A stretch of DNA of 64,000 nt from an uncultured Candidatus Saccharibacteria bacterium. GTDB lineage: Bacteria; Patescibacteriota; Minisyncoccia; Phycocordibacterales; JACOZG01. Made by a program: the position numbers and the translations under genes. The DNA is taken from the NCBI GenBank assembly GCA_965230925.1, contig OZ246403.1, positions 138,455 through 202,454 of the forward strand, written 5' to 3'. Under the pieces are notes generated by a model. That model was not told where the DNA came from, did not search any database, and worked only from the letters and a program-made list of their open reading frames with translations. This document shows positions 2,224 through 10,500 of the stretch, piece by piece; position 1 is the stretch's first letter, and each line of letters begins with the position of its first letter.

Positions 2224-4140
2224 TTAGAGAATAGTCTCGGGCTCGACATTAATAATAAATCGAGGCGGTAATGCCTTCAGACTAGCAAGTAATTCTTCCT
2301 CTGGCCACCGCTTGGGCTCGAGTTTAAGGAGCAGGTGCATGATGTATTCTCCCTTCACTTCCGAGGTAAAAGCGGGGAATGTTTCTGGTTCATAATCATT
2401 GAGTGAGGTCGCGAGGTGTTGGATCTCAGGAAGAATCTCGAGTCGTTTACCTTCCCGAGTAATTTTTAATAACAACTTAAACGGCGGATAACCAAAGCGC
2501 TCGCGATCAGTAATTTCTTTACGATAAAACTCAAGCAAGTTTCCGGTCATCGCTTGCTCAAAGAATGGCCAATCACCGTGCTTGGTCTGAACGAGAAATT
2601 GCTTGGTCGCCAGTTCCCGCGCGCGCAAGAGTAAGTTAAAAGCCTTCTCGCCAATGCGAAAATCGGGAATTGTAAACAATCCATCAAGCGACACCACCGC
2701 CACGTTCTCTACTTTATCTTTCAAGTAATGTAGCGCGAGCTCGGTCCCAAGAAGACAAGCTCCCGGCGTAGCAAAAAAACGTGAAATAATTTCTTTGGCT
2801 TTCTTGCCTGTCGGCGCCAAATCACTATCGAGCCGGAAAATTTCGAGGTCGGGGACCAGCTTCTTTAGTGCGAGCTCAACACCCTCGATAGCAATGCCGA
2901 GTTGCTCGAGCCGCCAGCCGCCGCAGTTGCGACAGCGTTCTTCTACCGCTCTTGTCTCACGACATTTATGGCAAACGAGGCGGTAATCGGCGGCCGCCCC
3001 ACCACCATCGGTGCGGAAGCGATGTAAGACCATTGGATTTGCGCAACGCCGACAGCGAATACTCTCGCCGCAATCACGACAAATAATGAGCGGCGATGTC
3101 CCTCGACGATTAACGAGAAAGAAGCTACGTTCGCCGCGGCGCATGGCTTGAGCCAAGAGCCACTCGAGACGCGCAGTGACAGGACGGAATTCCTCACCAG
3201 TTTCGCGCTCGAAGGGAATAATTTCTTGCCGCGCCGGAGAAAAGGCGCGGTGCTTCAACGGTGAGGCAGACATAATCTCGCCGCGCTCCACGCGGTGATT
3301 AGTTTCTGACCGCAACAAGGTGTCACCAAAATAAATTTTACAACCGAGCGCTGAAGCAAAAAATTCTCCAAACCGTCGATAATCAAGAAAGGGTCGCGAG
3401 AGTTGCTTATAACTTCCTGAACTCTCACGATCAAACACAATTGAACCGAGATCTGCCCGCGGGAGAGAAAGGAAGGCGGGTGTGGCTAAAACAAGCACCG
3501 GATGCGACTGGCTCACGGCGTCACGCCAATTTTCCCACAACACCTTCGAACCCAGTTTACTGTGGAGGATAAACATATATTCGCGAATCCCTTTCTCGAG
3601 AAGTGTCGCGGCGTGCTCGATCTCGGCCACCGTCGGAAGAATGAGAAAAACGGAAGCATTACGCGCAAACTCCGAGCGAATGAGGCTCTTGTAGAAAGCG
3701 AGTCGCTCAACTTCTGGTTCTTGAAGGGCAAAAAGTTCGGGATGCTTACGCGGCAAACGCTTAACTTCCTTTTTCACCGTGGGCAACTTTTCCTTCCCGC
3801 TCAAGTAACGATCAAGAACGGGCTGGCTAACCACGCTCTTTAACACCTGGCCCAAACTGGAAGCAAAATGATCCGACGCTCTCCGGGCGGCGTCAAGAAA
3901 GCTGGGCAACAGGAAATTACTAACCGACGCCGTGGGCAACTTCTTGAGCTGGAAACTGGCTCCCCGAAGGCTCGTTTTCTGCGCCGCGGCATCAGTAACC
4001 GCTGTAATAATCGCCGGCACCTTCTTGCCACGAACATTAACCTCGAGCAAAGAGCCGAGCATAGGGGGCTCTTTGGCAAAGTAAGACAGCCGATCTCTAA
4101 AAACACCGCGGGCAATGGGTAATACTTCCACTACTTTCAT
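2224..4140 (-). CDS. priA: primosomal protein N' (PriA helicase)
   Basis: Helicase domains plus Cys4 zinc-binding cluster CRDCG..CRRCANPMVLH. The ORF extends to 4221, but the PriA-typical N-terminus MKVVEVLPIA begins at 4140, so I take 4140 as the start. Confidence 0.85.
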   Translation of the reverse strand: MKVVEVLPIARGVFRDRLSYFAKEPPMLGSLLEVNVRGKKVPAIITAVTDAAAQKTSLRGASFQLKKLPTASVSNFLLPSFLDAARRASDHFASSLGQVLKSVVSQPVLDRYLSGKEKLPTVKKEVKRLPRKHPELFALQEPEVERLAFYKSLIRSEFARNASVFLILPTVAEIEHAATLLEKGIREYMFILHSKLGSKVLWENWRDAVSQSHPVLVLATPAFLSLPRADLGSIVFDRESSGSYKQLSRPFLDYRRFGEFFASALGCKIYFGDTLLRSETNHRVERGEIMSASPLKHRAFSPARQEIIPFERETGEEFRPVTARLEWLLAQAMRRGERSFFLVNRRGTSPLIICRDCGESIRCRRCANPMVLHRFRTDGGGAAADYRLVCHKCRETRAVEERCRNCGGWRLEQLGIAIEGVELALKKLVPDLEIFRLDSDLAPTGKKAKEIISRFFATPGACLLGTELALHYLKDKVENVAVVSLDGLFTIPDFRIGEKAFNLLLRARELATKQFLVQTKHGDWPFFEQAMTGNLLEFYRKEITDRERFGYPPFKLLLKITREGKRLEILPEIQHLATSLNDYEPETFPAFTSEVKGEYIMHLLLKLEPKRWPEEELLASLKALPPRFIINVEPETIL

Positions 4141-4176
4141 TGCTTTAGAAGATAACACGATGATAAAATAAACTGA

Positions 4177-4998
4177 ATGCCGAGCGAGAAGTACATCGGC
4201 GCTTTGGAAGTGGCGGGGCATGATGAAAAAAAGCTCGCCGCTCTTGAGTCTTTGTGCCGCGAAGGGAAGGTGAAAGCCAAACTCGTGGGTAATTCTTGGT
4301 ACGTGACTGAATCAGTGCGAGATAATCTCAAGGCGCATCTCTCAGAATTTAAGCCAAAAACAAACTATCTCCACCACGCCGAACCAGCTGGTCGAGCGGT
4401 GGCGGCGCTTGCGGTAGTCATTGCCCTTGGTATTGGCCTTGCGGCTGAAGGACAAGTTAGTTCTACAATCGCTACGCGCCTCAAAGAAAATGAGGTGGGT
4501 ACTCCAGCACTCACGGCAAGCCTTGCTCCCGTGTTCCGAGATGTTACCGAGGCGCTCGCGGCACTCTTTGAAGATATTTCTCGGATGAAAAATTATGTTA
4601 GTGATCAGTGGTTCTATTATGGTTCACGGATCAAGCTAGCTTGGGGAGGCTTCTTAACGGAAGAAGAAACGCAAAAAATAGAGCAGGTGGCTAACACCGT
4701 CAACACTGGCACCACAATTGATCGCGAACAATTGCGCGCGGAAATTCGAGAAGAATTAAGTGCGGCCCTGCGCGCGAGTGGCGTCCCAGCGGAAGTTACC
4801 CAGCAAGGCCTAATCGTCGTGCCTTCTACCGGCGATCCGGCCACCGACCGCCTGAGCATCTCGGAAATTAACGCTCTTTTCTCCGACGAGGTAAGCGTGC
4901 GCTTCGACGAAAGTGGTCGAGCGGGAGTCATTACACCCAAGTTTAAGACCGGGGAATCAAACGACTACCTCTTTCTCCTAACGCCGGTGAATCACTAA
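4177..4998 (+). CDS. hypothetical membrane protein (one TM helix near residue 80)
   Basis: Long ORF, divergent from priA; TM segment AVAALAVVIALGIGLAA; no recognisable domain. Confidence 0.5.
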   Translation: MPSEKYIGALEVAGHDEKKLAALESLCREGKVKAKLVGNSWYVTESVRDNLKAHLSEFKPKTNYLHHAEPAGRAVAALAVVIALGIGLAAEGQVSSTIATRLKENEVGTPALTASLAPVFRDVTEALAALFEDISRMKNYVSDQWFYYGSRIKLAWGGFLTEEETQKIEQVANTVNTGTTIDREQLRAEIREELSAALRASGVPAEVTQQGLIVVPSTGDPATDRLSISEINALFSDEVSVRFDESGRAGVITPKFKTGESNDYLFLLTPVNH

Positions 4999-5745
4999 AT
5001 GATCAGCCTCACGCCCGCTAAACTTGAATTCTCGGTGTCGCCCGGCCAAAGCGTAACTAAGCTGATTACGCTTAAAAACGAGAGCGCGGAGAACCTAGTG
5101 GGGGAAGTGTTGATCGAGAACTTCGGCCCCGAGCAATATGCGCTCAATCGCTTTCTCACACCTGGCGTACGCACCTTTGCGCTTGGGGCGGGAGAAACAC
5201 GCAGCCTACCCATCACCGTCAGCTTGCCTGCCAATCAAGGTCCGGGCGGCCTCTACACCTCGGTGGTCACCAGCTTTCGCCTCGCGAGCGAGACTGTAGC
5301 CAAAGCAGAAAGTCGCTTAGCCAGCCTCGTCTTTGTAAAAGTCCCTGGCCAAGCAAAAGAAGAGGGGCAACTAACCAACTTTCAAAAACAAGAAAACTCT
5401 CTGTATCTAACTTTCAAAAACACCGGCAATGTTTATCTCAATCCATATGGCGGTGTCAAAATCAAAAATTCAATTTCTGGCGCCGAACAAATTATTTCTG
5501 TCGATCCTTGGTTCGTGCTTCCTGGGGATACTCGGATTCGCGAAATCGAAATTAAAAACTCGCTAGGCCTTGGTCGCTGGCAAGCCACCGCAGAACTAAA
5601 CAGGGGTTATGGCGACCTCATCGACACCCGCGCCATCGCCTTCTGGATCTTACCGCCAATTTGGACGATGGTGGTTGTTGGACTTGTGATTTTGGCTGTC
5701 TTGTTTGGCCTTGGTTGGAAATTCTGGCGACGTGGTAAAATTTAA
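4999..5745 (+). CDS. hypothetical beta-rich protein with C-terminal TM anchor
   Basis: Starts immediately after the TAA of the preceding ORF in the same frame; Ig-like or chaperone-like beta-strand pattern; C-terminal TM plus basic tail WKFWRRGKI. Confidence 0.5.
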   Translation: MISLTPAKLEFSVSPGQSVTKLITLKNESAENLVGEVLIENFGPEQYALNRFLTPGVRTFALGAGETRSLPITVSLPANQGPGGLYTSVVTSFRLASETVAKAESRLASLVFVKVPGQAKEEGQLTNFQKQENSLYLTFKNTGNVYLNPYGGVKIKNSISGAEQIISVDPWFVLPGDTRIREIEIKNSLGLGRWQATAELNRGYGDLIDTRAIAFWILPPIWTMVVVGLVILAVLFGLGWKFWRRGKI

Positions 5746-5748
5746 AAT

Positions 5749-6489
5749 ATGAAATGGGGCTGGGGATTAATTATTTTGACCTGCTTACTCGGCGCACAAG
5801 GGGCGGCGGCGTATGTAGCCTCGAGCAATAATTATAGAATCCAAACCGACAGCGTTAATGTGGGCGGCGGACTTTCAACTTCGACTAATTACGCTATGGA
5901 AAGCACGGCGGGGGAAATTGCGAGTGGGGAATCAAGTAGTACTAATTACAAAATCAAGGCTGGTTATCAGCAAATGCTCGTGAGTTCAATCTCAATCTCA
6001 GCGCCAAGCGATGTGAGCTTGGGTTCTATTGATGGCACCACGGGCGGCAGTGCGCTTGGCTCAACCGCTTGGACCGTGATTACCGACAACGCTGCTGGTT
6101 ACATTTTAGCCGTCCGCTCAAGCACTAATCCGGCTCTCACTTCTGGTGGAAACAGCGTTAGCAATTACACACCCGCTGGCGCCACACCTGATTACACTTG
6201 GTCGGTGGCTGCGAGTGCCAGCGAATTCGGCTTTAGTCCTGAAGGCACGCACGTGGTCCAGCGTTATCTCGACAATGGATCAAGCTGTAATGCTGGCGCA
6301 AGCAACAACACCAACACTTGCTGGGATCCATTTTCCACCTCCAACACCACCGTAGCCTCAAGCGCAAGCGCCAACTCTCCCAGCGGCACGGCCACCACCC
6401 TTAAGCTCCAAGCCGAACTCGGCGCTGACCTCGAGCCCACCGACGGCGCCTACTCAGCCACCATTATTGCCACCGCCACCGCGCAATGA
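5749..6489 (+). CDS. secreted Ser/Thr/Asn-rich protein
   Basis: Signal peptide MKWGWGLIILTCLLGAQGAAA; repeated xTNY motifs; low-complexity S/T/A-rich C-terminus. Confidence 0.5.
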   Translation: MKWGWGLIILTCLLGAQGAAAYVASSNNYRIQTDSVNVGGGLSTSTNYAMESTAGEIASGESSSTNYKIKAGYQQMLVSSISISAPSDVSLGSIDGTTGGSALGSTAWTVITDNAAGYILAVRSSTNPALTSGGNSVSNYTPAGATPDYTWSVAASASEFGFSPEGTHVVQRYLDNGSSCNAGASNNTNTCWDPFSTSNTTVASSASANSPSGTATTLKLQAELGADLEPTDGAYSATIIATATAQ

Positions 6490-8516
6490 TTAAACTCGCC
6501 TCGCTCAAAATTATCGCCGCCGCCATTCTTCTTTTAATCGTCGGCGGCATCGGGCTCAGAACCTTCGCCGCTAACGATAGTGTAAATGTGAGCCTCGAAA
6601 TTGCTTGTCCGGGAGACGACTGCGCCCCCTCAGGAGGTGGTGGCGGGCCGCCCCCACCTCCTCCGCCGCCTCCGCCACCGAGCCCGATATTGGGCTGCAC
6701 CGACTCCGATGCCACCAATTACAACGCTTCAGCCACCCAAGATGATGGTTCTTGCGTGTACCCCAGCGACGCCGTTCCAAATGTCTCTGACTTCGACGGT
6801 GAATACGACGAGGATAATGAAGAAATTGATTTAAGCTGGACCAACCCCGATTTCCCCGAATTTGCCAGTGTTCGTATTATGCGAAGCACCAGCTTTTTCC
6901 CCACTAACCCAAGCAGTGGCGACCTTGTATACACCGGTAGCGGCGAAAGTGCCGTCGACAATGATGTAGAACCGGGCACCACCTACTATTACGCCATCTT
7001 TGTTCGCAATACCAATGGCGATTATTCATCAGGCGCAGTTACGAGCGTGAATGTGCCCGAGCCAGAAGAAGAGCCACCGGAAGAAGAACCAGAGGACGAA
7101 GAACCGCCGGTTGATGAGGACGGAAACGGTATTCCTGACGATGAGGAACCGCCGGACCCCTTCGCCGATCTACCACAAGCGCCAATTGTTGACCCTCTTG
7201 TGGAAGTTCTAAACTTTGGCGACTTTATCTTCGTTCAACCAGGCGAGGGGAGGCAATTCTTCGGTAGTGGCAGTGTGCTCCGGATTAATGGCAAAAAAGA
7301 TCTGACTGTTCTCCTGGAGGCAAACAAGGTACCGGGGAATCTAAAAACCATCGCTATAACTCTGCGCGACCCAAGCGATTGGAAAAAAACTTTTTCTTTT
7401 CTCCTTAAATTAAATGAAACGGGAACAGCCTACACCGCCACCATTGCTCCGCTTGGGAGATCGGGTAATTATCCGGTTTATATTTCTATCGTCGACTTCC
7501 AAAATCAAAGTATAAAAAGAATTGAGGGGCGCCTTCTCGTGGCCGCGGCCGGAGCCGCACCAATAGCGAATATCGCAGGAAGAATCGCTTCACCTTTTGT
7601 TGTCGCATCCGGTCTTATCCTTGGTGTGGCCGAAGGATTTTCGCTTGTTGCGCATATCAAATCATTTTCTGATCTCTATTGGCTTCTCCTTCACGGCTTC
7701 AACCTCATCACCCGCTTCTTCGGCTTCCGGAAAAAGGTTAAACCTTGGGGCGTGGTCTACGACTCAGTAACCAAGCGACCGCTTGACCCAGCTTACGTGA
7801 TCGTGAAGCAATCCGACAGCGACGTAAACACAGCCATCACCGACCTCGACGGCCGCTACGGCTTTTTACTCCAATCCGGAACCTACTCTCTGATGGCAAA
7901 CAAAACCCACTATCAATTTCCCTCGGTAAAGCTCGCAGGAAGAACGAGCGATGAGCTCTACGATAATCTCTACCATGGCGGCGACTTCCAAACCCTCACT
8001 GGTGAAGTGATTAATCGCAATATTCCGCTCGACCCAATTGCCTTCGACTGGAATGAATTTGCAAAAGATAAGCAGGGCTTCTTCATTCTCCACACCAAGA
8101 AGGAGAAGCGACGCGCGCGCCTTCTCAACGGCGTTTTCATTATCGGCTTTGCCCTCTCGGCCTACAACCTCGTGTTCAACCCGAGCTGGTTAAACATTCT
8201 CGCGATCGCCTTCTATCTCGCGACGCCACTCGGCCGTCTCTGGTGGCGCCACCGCCGACCCGTCGTACAAGTGAAAAGTCTCACAAGTGGCTTGCCTTCG
8301 CCGTACGCTATCGTGAAAGCGTTTATTCCGAAAGTTAATCAACAAGTGCGTCAGGTGGTGGCGGATCAATTGGGTCGCTTCTTCCTTCTCACCCCGCCAG
8401 GGGAATATTATCTCACCGTAGAAGAAAAACAGGATGATGGCACCTACAAAAAAGTTCTGGAGACTCCTCCGCTACTTCTCTCTCGCGGTGTGCTAGATAA
8501 AAACTTAGTTTTCTAG
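6486..8516 (+). CDS. large multidomain envelope protein (signal anchor, G5-P12 linker, FN3-like domain, acidic PE-rich linker, TM segments, CarboxypepD_reg-like modules)
   Basis: ATGA overlap with the upstream gene; poly-Pro encoded by mixed codons; FN3-like consensus DLSWTNP...TYYYAIFVRNTNGDYSS; CarbopepD-reg-like VYDSVTKRPLDPAYVIVKQ..DLDGRYGF. Confidence 0.6.
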   Translation: MIKLASLKIIAAAILLLIVGGIGLRTFAANDSVNVSLEIACPGDDCAPSGGGGGPPPPPPPPPPPSPILGCTDSDATNYNASATQDDGSCVYPSDAVPNVSDFDGEYDEDNEEIDLSWTNPDFPEFASVRIMRSTSFFPTNPSSGDLVYTGSGESAVDNDVEPGTTYYYAIFVRNTNGDYSSGAVTSVNVPEPEEEPPEEEPEDEEPPVDEDGNGIPDDEEPPDPFADLPQAPIVDPLVEVLNFGDFIFVQPGEGRQFFGSGSVLRINGKKDLTVLLEANKVPGNLKTIAITLRDPSDWKKTFSFLLKLNETGTAYTATIAPLGRSGNYPVYISIVDFQNQSIKRIEGRLLVAAAGAAPIANIAGRIASPFVVASGLILGVAEGFSLVAHIKSFSDLYWLLLHGFNLITRFFGFRKKVKPWGVVYDSVTKRPLDPAYVIVKQSDSDVNTAITDLDGRYGFLLQSGTYSLMANKTHYQFPSVKLAGRTSDELYDNLYHGGDFQTLTGEVINRNIPLDPIAFDWNEFAKDKQGFFILHTKKEKRRARLLNGVFIIGFALSAYNLVFNPSWLNILAIAFYLATPLGRLWWRHRRPVVQVKSLTSGLPSPYAIVKAFIPKVNQQVRQVVADQLGRFFLLTPPGEYYLTVEEKQDDGTYKKVLETPPLLLSRGVLDKNLVF

Positions 8517-8635
8517 TAAACTTTTTCTCGGAAAGTGTTCCAACATCTCCAACCCTCCTTTCACACATCACTTCTTGCCCAACCAAGATCTTACCGGGCA
8601 GATTGACGATCGGGAGGAACACACCCCAACCAGAT

Positions 8636-8686
8636 GGATCCCAACTTGCCGCGCCCGTTTTTGCAAGTTGGGATCCTTTTATTTTG
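8636..8686 (+). terminator. strong rho-independent terminator (14-bp stem ggatcccaacttgc/gcaagttgggatcc + T-run)
   Basis: Perfect inverted repeat followed by TTTTATTTT. Confidence 0.75.
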
Positions 8687-8773
8687 CTCAACCAACCTTG
8701 ACTTTTTTTAATAAAGTGATAGTTATTTAAATAGTTTCGTTTACGTTTTAGAGGACCTGTTAGGAGGTGAACC

Positions 8774-9319
8774 TTGAAATACTTGGCAGTCATAAGTTCC
8801 GTTATCGCCACATTGGCGATTTTGGCCTTCGGGGTACAAATCTGGAAAACCAACACCCCGCAAAATGTTGCTAGCTGGTTAATGTGGCTAATTCTCAACA
8901 CGATATTATTGTTCGCCTCGATTTCCGCAGGCAATAAGAAGTCATGGATGTTGAGTCTGGGCTACGTAATTGGAGGAGCAGCAGGAACAGCCGCGTTGCT
9001 TTTCCGAGGTCAATGGCATTGGGGAAAAACAGAAACAGTTTGTGCTGTTGGCGCAGCAGTTAGCATGATGGTGTGGAAAAAACTAGGTCCCAAAAAGGGC
9101 TTGGTCGTTAGTGCGATTGCAATCACCATGGCAGGAATACCCGCTCTGAGCGAAGCGTGGCAAACCCACAATCGTGAAAGCTGGTGGCTTTGGACAATCA
9201 TTGCTTTCTGCTGCCTCCTCACCACCATCGGCGCAGAGCGGTGGACTCTGCAAGATCGCTTGTTCCCTATTGTCAGTATGATTTTCAATGGCACGATGGC
9301 CGTCCTTGTTCTTTTGTAA
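8774..9319 (+). CDS. polytopic membrane protein, paralog 1 (possible PQ-loop/PnuC-like fold)
   Basis: TTG start with strong SD AGGAGGT; about 6 predicted TM helices; TPQ motif; homologous to the downstream ORF. Confidence 0.55.
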   Translation: MKYLAVISSVIATLAILAFGVQIWKTNTPQNVASWLMWLILNTILLFASISAGNKKSWMLSLGYVIGGAAGTAALLFRGQWHWGKTETVCAVGAAVSMMVWKKLGPKKGLVVSAIAITMAGIPALSEAWQTHNRESWWLWTIIAFCCLLTTIGAERWTLQDRLFPIVSMIFNGTMAVLVLL

Positions 9320-9324
9320 AACAA

Positions 9325-9372
9325 CCTGTTCTCGTACGCAGAAAAACCTGCTGAGGACAGGTTTTTCTTTTT
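9325..9372 (+). terminator. rho-independent terminator
   Basis: cctgttctc...gaggacagg hairpin + TTTTTCTTTTT. Confidence 0.65.
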
Positions 9373-9511
9373 AGTTATTGACTATTTGAAAGCCTTGACT
9401 TATTCCTTATAGAATGCTAGTCTGTTGGCAGTAAAAGATCGTTGATTTAAGCCAAAAGTGCGGGCTTTTCTAATACGCACTTAAACCATAAAGAGGAAGG
9501 AGGGCTGACAA

Positions 9512-10093
9512 TTGTCAGTAAAAGATATTCTTTCGGCAGCTGCCGGATTACTGTTCCTTGCAGGTTATGTTCCATATATCATTAGTATCTTTCGGGGTAA
9601 CAAGCCGGCAAAGGCCTCCTGGTTAATCTGGGTTAGCCTCGACACCATTAGTTTGGTCGCCATGTATTACGAGAAAACGGTAAACGGCCAAATTCTTGGT
9701 ACAGTAGCAGGAGCCTGGGTAGTTACGGCCCTCGCGATGAAGTACGGCAAACCGGGGTGGAGCAACCTTGATAAGTTCTGCTTGGTTGGGGCAGTCGTGG
9801 GAATCGCTTTGTGGCAATACTTCGATAGTCCAGTCTTGGGTTTGGTTACCAGTCAGGCGGTCACTTTTTTGGGGTCAGTTCCAACATTCGTTTCAGCTTG
9901 GAAAGATCCCTCGCAAGAAGACCGTTTTGCCTGGACTCTCTACTGGCTATCTTGTGTTGCTGCAATGTTTGCAATTCCCTCACCGACAATTGCCCACGTT
10001 ACTCAACCTACAACCTTCTTTATCATCGAGAGTGTCATGATGTACTTACTCTTTGTCAGAAAAAGAGTGAGAATCATTCCTGTTACCGATTAA
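9512..10093 (+). CDS. polytopic membrane protein, paralog 2
   Basis: TTG start with strong SD AGGAAGGAGGG; alignable to paralog 1 (ASWL.W..L.T, SAW..WT motifs). Confidence 0.55.
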   Translation: MSVKDILSAAAGLLFLAGYVPYIISIFRGNKPAKASWLIWVSLDTISLVAMYYEKTVNGQILGTVAGAWVVTALAMKYGKPGWSNLDKFCLVGAVVGIALWQYFDSPVLGLVTSQAVTFLGSVPTFVSAWKDPSQEDRFAWTLYWLSCVAAMFAIPSPTIAHVTQPTTFFIIESVMMYLLFVRKRVRIIPVTD

Positions 10094-10120
10094 GATCGCC
10101 CTCTAAAAATCGATCTGTGA

Positions 10121-10163
10121 GCCCGCTGTCAGTTCCAATGGAACGCGGCGGGCTTTTTCTTTT
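10121..10163 (+). terminator. rho-independent terminator
   Basis: gcccgc...gcgggc hairpin + TTTTTCTTTT. Confidence 0.65.
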
Positions 10164-10247
10164 CTTGGTTTTTATGATAAAAAGATTAGCTGTTGGATAG
10201 AACCTTCCCAAACCATTTTTTCTATAACACGAAAGGAGTCGACGTAA

Positions 10248-10438
10248 TGACAGACTATGACGGTTCCGACACCAGACGTCCCTACGAATGGCCATACATT
10301 GATGACGCAAGGCGAAACAGAAACGGAAGGGTTGAACTCGGGGCGCGACAACGAAAGACGAAAAGCTTTCTTGCCAGCCTTGTCGTGATCGGCGCAGTCG
10401 TTATCGTGTTTTGGAAAATATTTTGGCCTTCGGACTAA
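10248..10438 (+). CDS. small tail-anchored membrane protein (63 aa)
   Basis: ATG with SD AAAGGAG 9 nt upstream; C-terminal TM LASLVVIGAVVIVFW; the listed ORF begins earlier at 10193. Confidence 0.35.
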
Positions 10439-10465
10439 AGGAGGAAAATGGGTTGATAGTTAAGG

Positions 10466-10500
10466 CCTGCCTCGGGGCGGGCTTTATCTTTGTCTTTTTC
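10466..10500 (+). terminator. rho-independent terminator carrying the 22-nt tail CGGGCTTTATCTTTGTCTTTTT
   Basis: Hairpin cctgcc-tcgg-ggcggg + T-rich tail; the tail is identical to the one at 11686-11707. Confidence 0.6.

Follow-up and report, generated by a model that had tools for sequence, protein, structure and literature searches.

Two neighbouring, divergent membrane proteins of a predicted SWEET/PQ-loop/KDEL-receptor fold from a Patescibacteria genome, and their family

Two small open reading frames (ORFs), designated ORF A and ORF B, follow each other in a 64,000-nucleotide (nt) stretch of DNA from an uncultured Candidatus Saccharibacteria bacterium (GenBank assembly GCA_965230925.1, contig OZ246403.1, positions 138,455 to 202,454; this whole stretch is referred to as the window). 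To which known proteins are they related, do they form a true pair, and what could their function be? An earlier note, made from the nucleotide sequence alone, had described them as tandem paralogs and had weakly suggested a small transporter fold of the SWEET, PQ-loop or PnuC type. The results presented here point to the superfold of SWEET proteins, PQ-loop proteins and KDEL receptors, and to the transport of a small solute as the preferred, although not certain, function.

Models of both proteins were built with AlphaFold2 on family alignments and compared with the Protein Data Bank (PDB) by Foldseek. Seven helices were predicted for each (ORF A: predicted local distance difference test, pLDDT, 92.7 and predicted template modelling score, pTM, 0.86; ORF B: pLDDT 91.9 and pTM 0.85), arranged in the 3+1+3 order of SWEET/MtN3 proteins (PF03083) with two bundles of three transmembrane (TM) helices. 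The top matches of ORF B were cystinosin 7zkz (E 0.011, TM-score 0.62), 8dke (0.62) and 8dyp (0.63), followed by several KDEL-receptor structures (about 0.6) and AtSWEET13. Those of ORF A were KDEL receptors with TM-scores of 0.66–0.68 (7rxc, E 8e-4; 6i6j, TM-score 0.68), followed by AtSWEET13 (5xpd, E 2.3e-3), OsSWEET2b (5cth) and cystinosin. All top PDB matches of the two proteins (cystinosin, KDEL receptor, AtSWEET13, OsSWEET2b) belong to one superfold, with TM-scores of 0.56–0.68, and the fold in common with cystinosin is a trait of the PQ-loop family (PF04193). Predicted viral structures (BFVD) gave matches as well, among them a "PQ loop repeat protein" and, with lengths of 192–231 amino acids (aa), several unnamed proteins. 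Lysine and arginine are enriched in the loop between helices 1 and 2 (2.5), in loop 3–4 (0.9) and in the C-terminus (1.4), against 0.2–0.55 in the other loops; from this positive-inside pattern an N-out/C-in topology follows. According to models and topology, ORF A and ORF B are thus predicted to be seven-helix inner-membrane proteins of the 3+1+3 SWEET/PQ-loop/KDEL-receptor superfold, which bears out the tentative proposal of a SWEET- or PQ-loop-type fold. A rhodopsin-like or G protein-coupled receptor-like seven-helix fold was also considered and was rejected (poor Foldseek matches, TM-score < 0.4).

PQ-loop proteins possess two PQ dipeptides at the hinges of TM1 and TM5, and in their place PY and PT were found here. 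By position in the models, the structural counterpart of the PQ hinge would be P21-Y22 and P124-T125 of ORF B. P21 is present in most family members and P124 in 92–100%, the following residue being Y and T, respectively, and not Q; in ORF A the TM1 proline is absent altogether. The tripeptide TPQ of ORF A (residues 28–30), which had been taken for a PQ-loop-like motif, proved to be located in the TM1–TM2 loop, off the hinge, and is aligned with KPA of ORF B. An internal repeat, which places G18/P21/W37 in register with G121/P124/W141, is weak (hhalign E 0.08).

ORF B has more than 240 homologs in a word index, with 55–66% identity, all of them unnamed or "hypothetical"; where an organism name was given, in a few cases, it was that of a Patescibacteria lineage. 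When 1.84 billion cluster representatives were searched with a profile, 4190 clusters (50% identity) had E ≤ 1e-3, of which 2334 reached E ≤ 1e-10. Scanning of GTDB, with one genome per species and three peptide patterns of the core clade, gave 74 loci, which were nearly all from Parcubacteria-type, Peregrinibacteria-type or unclassified Patescibacteria, the exceptions being a Solirubrobacteraceae chromosome and an Acidobacteriota contig. Judged by these comparisons, ORF B is a member of a tightly conserved core clade (its genes and proteins are called B-type here) which is almost confined to the Patescibacteria, or candidate phyla radiation (CPR). Values of dN/dS (nonsynonymous to synonymous substitution rates) of 0.07–0.2 indicate purifying selection on B-type genes. 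P0273-like proteins form a third distinct clade of the family.

Across 131 divergent representatives, 18 signature positions are conserved to at least 80%, namely (ORF B numbering) Y22, P32, W37, W40, D44, M51, G67, G79, W83, W101, P124, T125, P133, E136, W141, Q165, P166 and F169. ORF B contains all 18 residues and ORF A ten, its substitutions being Y22F, P32Q, D44N, M51S, T125A, P133H, Q165F and F169S; two of these (D44N, Q165F) replace intramembrane polar residues. Many invariant residues are situated in the cytoplasmic loops (KPAKASW, GxPGW, WKDPxxE). With no entry in four curated libraries (Pfam, NCBIfam, PADLOC, PHROGs), this appears to be a sizeable, unannotated sequence family within a known fold class, which is nearly restricted to the Patescibacteria.

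ORF A and ORF B are paralogs, as had been stated: BLASTP showed 27% identity over 162 aa (E 2e-15), far past chance. Of the two sequence blocks said to be shared, ASWL.W..L.T is exact in both proteins, whereas the second reads SAW...AWT in ORF B and EAW...LWT in ORF A. A phylogeny had been proposed for dating the duplication. Since the identity of ORF A with its neighbour (27%) is no higher than with further B-type proteins (25–30%), and since in a neighbour-joining tree it forms, together with P0122 and P0266, a separate long and deep branch outside the tight B clade, either the duplication is old or ORF A evolves rapidly. As far as sequence comparison can tell, ORF A is therefore no recent tandem copy of ORF B. 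Conservation of the pair in relatives, a further point of the earlier note, was not found: a second family member is situated beside a B-type gene in six of 75 distinct loci (the window, L018, L024, L032, L035 and L081), the partners are of differing types and on either side, and the B-type gene is single in about 69 of the 75. P0122, the closest relative of ORF A, stands alone between grpE and dnaK.

B-type homologs are usually equipped with a consensus promoter of their own (TTGACA-17-TATAAT type) and likewise with a terminator. Between species-level genomes which were assigned by their depositors to different candidate phyla, B-type DNA identities of 75–91% were found; the similarity begins at the promoter and ends just past the terminator, and the 4-kb flanks of these loci are without similarity at the DNA or protein level. 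Examples are L015 (Azambacteria) and L016 (Ryanbacteria), with 91% identity over 940 bp, L019 (Moraniibacteriota) and L024 (Harrisonbacteria), with 82%, and L012 and L023 (Andersenbacteria), also with 82%; besides L015, L016 and L019, the loci taking part in this sharing are L011, L012, L013, L017, L023, L024, L025, L028 and L056. In those pairs that were scored, dS was 0.26–0.6, far below saturation. Because high identity is limited to the stretch from promoter through terminator, with unrelated flanks and such values of dS, the simplest reading would be that Patescibacteria exchange a self-contained single-gene unit horizontally and that this unit is under selection. These variable contexts and the cassette-like conservation of DNA fit the accessory, non-housekeeping character that had been ascribed to the genes. 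ORF B of the window has no such close DNA relative, and its protein identity with a Moranbacteria ortholog (63%) is as high as the identity of the MreB proteins of these two organisms. A viral origin of B-type genes was rejected, since no relatives were detected in IMG/VR viral contigs.

What, then, might these proteins do? Three features, namely the 3+1+3 fold, kinks at prolines of TM1 and TM5, and the pseudo-symmetric tryptophans and polar residues, suggest that both ORF A and ORF B move a small solute by alternating access, as SemiSWEET, SWEET and cystinosin do, either facilitated or proton-coupled; a probability of roughly 55% is given to this reading of the models. The two triple-helix bundles would rock about the kinks of TM1 (P21) and TM5 (P124), and the putative solute path would be lined by paired tryptophans of TM2 and TM6 (W37/W40 and W141/W145) and by the polar residues D44, N58/Q60, D162/Q165 and E173. 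ORF A may differ from ORF B in specificity or coupling. Cystinosin is proton-coupled, and the intramembrane acidic residues of the present family are compatible with proton coupling.

Several results weigh against transport as the function. No model of Pfam or NCBIfam was above cut-off for ORF A, ORF B, 46 relatives, five diverged paralogs and seven longer members, i.e., there is no link to transporters by sequence. Sequence searches of the PDB with three family profiles produced only spurious matches to designed armadillo proteins and PsaM, and nothing reproducible. All-versus-all clustering of flanking ORFs from 75 loci revealed no recurrent neighbour of B-type genes; nor was a conserved neighbour, fusion partner or riboswitch found that would point to a substrate. 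Furthermore, the best solved-structure match of ORF A is a receptor and not a transporter, and the invariant residues of the cytoplasmic loops could equally indicate a partner-binding surface.

Since no sequence library contained a match, similarity of fold is the sole link of ORF A and ORF B to known families; because all sequence-based tests of membership failed, the proteins are not filed in the SWEET or PQ-loop families. With ORF A, ORF B, the 46 relatives and the five diverged paralogs, MtN3_slv (PF03083) gave no match at E ≤ 10, and no PF04193 profile match was found among these proteins or the longer members. SemiSWEET chains matched the family profile at E 0.48, which was not reproduced. 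PADLOC and PHROGs contained no model above cut-off, and hhalign against E. coli YgjV (Imp-YgjV), which we take to belong to the same Pfam clan, gave a probability of 0.2%.

Parallels with SWEET and SemiSWEET proteins are the two triple-helix bundles in N-out/C-in orientation, the kinks in TM1 and TM5, the paired tryptophans and Asn/Gln-type residues in equivalent helices of both repeats, and the presence of AtSWEET13 and OsSWEET2b among the top matches; differences are the hinge dipeptides and the failure to match the Pfam model. The conserved acidic residues D44, E136, D162 and E173 are not known as SWEET features. Likeness to the PQ-loop proteins cystinosin and PQLC2 consists of seven helices with an internal duplication and of cystinosin as the best PDB match of ORF B; however, the hinges are without PQ, a PF04193 match was not obtained, and cystinosin is lysosomal, whereas ORF A and ORF B are bacterial.

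It is unlikely, by analogy with the KDEL receptor or the transceptor PQLC2, that the proteins serve as membrane receptors or anchors for a ligand or a cytoplasmic partner instead of transporting anything. PQLC2 is described as a transceptor in a preprint (bioRxiv 10.64898/2026.09.18.752389). The KDEL receptor (PF00810), with a similar length of about 200 aa, is the top structural match of ORF A and is in the top group for ORF B, and the most invariant stretches of the family are cytoplasmic loops. However, KDEL receptors are eukaryotic trafficking receptors with no sequence similarity to ORF A or ORF B, and a co-inherited partner gene was not found in the 75 loci. Known bacterial members of the superfold, such as SemiSWEET and PnuC, are transporters, and the conserved intramembrane residues D44, W40, Q165 and E173 would be typical of a substrate path.

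Also improbable is a translocase for lipid-linked sugars or polyprenyl phosphate, or a helper of envelope synthesis, in analogy to what has been proposed for MPDU1 and other PQ-loop-type proteins, for the LAB_N domain, or for the lipid-linked sugar translocases assigned to the TOG superfamily. In the window, murA-mreB is situated about 1.6 kb downstream of ORF B, and murA-mreB-GT4 is within 6 kb of the Moranbacteria ortholog. One diverged paralog had a faint match to LAB_N (E 0.35), and the superfold includes such families, according to PMC7176098. The LAB_N match is, however, far short of significance; nearness to murA or mreB is restricted to few loci (an MreB-like ORF was nearby in only 4 of 75) and overall the neighbours are not conserved. 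Moreover, a housekeeping function in the envelope would agree poorly with a gene that occurs sporadically and is exchanged horizontally.

The self-contained single-gene units, with 75–91% DNA identity across unrelated contexts, could also be thought to spread because they protect the carrier, as an accessory membrane protein for toxin immunity or for exclusion of phage or DNA. Some B-type loci have restriction-modification, terminase or GIY-YIG genes nearby, BFVD contains viral proteins that agree in size and fold, and phrog_2642 is matched weakly over the full length (E 0.11). Such a function is nevertheless quite improbable: PADLOC gave no match, IMG/VR viral contigs no B-type gene, and the 75 loci no consistently adjacent toxin gene; to our knowledge, the superfold is without a precedent for immunity.

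Very improbable, and as family membership largely refuted, is the earlier suggestion of a PnuC-type importer of nicotinamide riboside or a similar vitamin under riboswitch control: PnuC (PF04973) does occur in the Foldseek lists and is likewise bacterial, 3+1+3 and Trp-rich (the proteins here have WxxW in TM2), and CPR bacteria are auxotrophs, but superposition on 4qtn was poor (TM-score 0.32–0.38, root-mean-square deviation about 15 Å, E about 0.7–1.4), comparison of the family profile with E. coli PnuC by hhalign gave a probability of 1.9%, the NMN_transporter model of Pfam had no match, and no riboswitch was present in the window leader or upstream of homologs (39 loci).

A riboswitch-like structure in the leader of ORF B (9375–9510) had been considered possible on account of a small hairpin (Table 1). 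Rfam searches of positions 8500–10300, with gathering and E-value thresholds, returned no family at a meaningful score, shuffled sequences fold as well as the leader does (z 0.02), and the leaders of ORF A and ORF B have no similarity to the upstream regions of 69 homologs; riboswitch control at the window locus was rejected on these grounds. In L016 (3845–4003; also in L015 and partly in L019), a multi-branched hairpin of about 130 nt (−69.9 kcal/mol, z −8.6) is situated directly 5' of the Shine-Dalgarno (SD) sequence of the B-type gene, with which its 5' arm pairs. It resembles a palindromic insertion into a leader common to L017 and L019, has no Rfam match and is absent from the window. A LOOT RNA (L027:1071–1202, 62.6 bits) and a cobalamin riboswitch (L039:8361–8518, 41.4 bits) in CPR loci are kilobases away from the B-type gene and are unrelated.

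The gene calls themselves agree with the earlier description, i.e., TTG starts behind strong SD sites. Homologs of ORF B have the same N-terminal start position, and P0122 (44% identity) has the same length as ORF A, which backs both starts. Public gene calls conflict on ORF A: one assembly contains the 181-aa form, while another call shortens it to 123 aa (8948–9319, + strand, from Met59) and adds a 173-aa antisense ORF (8413–8934, − strand), which is probably spurious. The 181-aa form should be correct, because similarity to ORF B starts at residue 21 of ORF A. Each gene is followed by its own intrinsic terminator with hairpin and U-run, as predicted (z −4.6 and −3.7); that of ORF A was also picked up by a scan at 9340–9368, and for ORF B the folded 77-nt stretch 10094–10170 has −28.6 kcal/mol and z −3.74. 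Judging from the sequence, the terminator of the preceding gene marks the left edge of the ORF A transcription unit. A promoter-like region for each gene could be upheld for ORF B (TTGAAA-18-TAGAAT), but not for ORF A, where TTGACT is without a good −10 element; promoter-like matches in the region were not more numerous than in shuffled sequence. The best explanation of these signals would be two independent monocistronic genes, each with its own SD sequence and terminator, as the earlier proposal of separate transcription units implies. Among 72 homolog loci, B-type start codons (heuristic assignment) were ATG in 38, GTG in 23 and TTG in 11 cases, mostly behind a strong AGGAGG.

Table 1. Positions of the features discussed (window numbering, or locus numbering where a locus is given).
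Feature	Position	Strand	Remarks
ORF A	8774-9319	+	181 aa, TTG start; predicted 7-TM protein of the SWEET/PQ-loop/KDEL-receptor fold
ORF B	9512-10093	+	193 aa, TTG start; predicted 7-TM protein of the SWEET/PQ-loop/KDEL-receptor fold
SD sequence of ORF A, AGGAGGT	8762-8768	+	5 nt 5' of TTG 8774 (sequence)
SD sequence of ORF B, GGAAGGAGGG	9495-9504	+	7-8 nt 5' of TTG (sequence)
Intrinsic terminator of upstream 676-aa gene	8632-8688	+	hairpin 8632-8680 and U-rich tail, -24.9 kcal/mol, z -5.05
Intrinsic terminator of ORF A	9325-9372	+	hairpin 9325-9361, -19 kcal/mol, z -4.57, then UUUUUCUUUUU
Intrinsic terminator of ORF B	10119-10168	+	hairpin 10119-10155, then UUUUUCUUUUCUU
Promoter-like site of ORF B, TTGAAA-18-TAGAAT	9386-9415	+	10/12 matches, sigma-70-like; consensus match only
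-35-like hexamer of ORF A, TTGACT	8698-8703	+	read from sequence; no convincing -10; unreported by promoter scan
Small hairpin in ORF B leader	9456-9482	+	-9.3 kcal/mol, z -1.8; flagged in the earlier note; no evidence of function
Shared B-type DNA units	L015:799-1738, L016:3754-4692, L019:1493-2550

Some observations on neighbouring genes and on unusual family members may be added. The 676-aa protein encoded upstream of ORF A (6486–8516) is probably a surface protein; its N-terminus resembles a signal anchor, it contains eleven consecutive prolines, acidic repeats and several C-terminal hydrophobic helices, and it weakly matches CarboxypepD_reg. The three ORFs preceding its gene (4177–6489) had no Pfam match. 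Downstream of ORF B is a 63-aa ORF (10248–10438), which public assemblies list as a gene; it has a C-terminal hydrophobic helix, an AGGAG SD-like site before it and a terminator-like hairpin (10461–10486) after it, and is without a Pfam match. In 7 of 60 loci (L017, L021, L034, L049, L050, L053, L060), a tRNA gene on the same strand precedes the B-type gene at a distance of up to about 400 nt. On the Solirubrobacteraceae chromosome (L061:2304–8116, 60% GC), the B-type gene (48% identity) is part of a tight same-strand cluster with genes for a Rieske oxygenase, a metallo-beta-lactamase-fold protein, a 609-aa polytopic membrane protein and a methyltransferase. The contig labelled Acidobacteriota (L041; B-type gene at 3992–4573, 54% identity) also carries an Acido-Lenti-1 RNA (6985–7032), and the neighbours (esterase, cupin, OTCase), like the context on the Solirubrobacteraceae chromosome, are uninformative. 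P0344, of the P0273-like clade, is labelled as a Nanoarchaeia (DPANN) archaeon, i.e., from a lineage of ultra-small symbionts, although mis-binning is possible. The B-type protein P0145 (293 aa) has an N-terminal extension (residues 1–105) with "GFPAQIHKNW", which resembles a PQ-type three-helix unit and has no Pfam match; C-terminal extensions of longer family members likewise contained no Pfam domain. In P0141 (L086:3220–4422, 400 aa), a diverged family unit is fused to a B-type unit; as there is no linker helix, the second unit would have inverted topology, but this fusion was seen on one 5-kb contig and could be an artefact of assembly or of a frameshift.

A large part of bacterial diversity consists of Patescibacteria, which lead a scavenging life and most of whose membrane proteins are without an assigned role. 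A full-text search of the literature gave no paper which ties Patescibacteria or CPR to PQ-loop, SemiSWEET or PnuC proteins. According to Méheust et al. 2019 (PMC6744442), 106 families are enriched in CPR, and one or more TM helices are present in 76 of these; eight enriched families whose function is unknown and which have over four TM helices "may be involved in transport". The present family answers to this description and may be one of the eight; in that paper, neither a fold nor a function is given for such families. A well-understood transporter fold could now be assigned to a family of about 4000 clusters, with signature residues to mutate, and the miscalled start of ORF A is corrected in annotation. 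Since the core branch behaves as a horizontally traded accessory gene under purifying selection, it should be tractable for heterologous screening of substrates. Tentatively, the B-type clade could represent unrecognised SWEET-like transporters, spreading as a unit from promoter to terminator between distant Patescibacteria lineages and occasionally to Acidobacteriota and Actinomycetota; the spread would then be explained by access to a metabolite for which these auxotrophic episymbionts depend on hosts or the environment. If this possibility were true, the identity of the substrate would reveal a key dependency of CPR bacteria.

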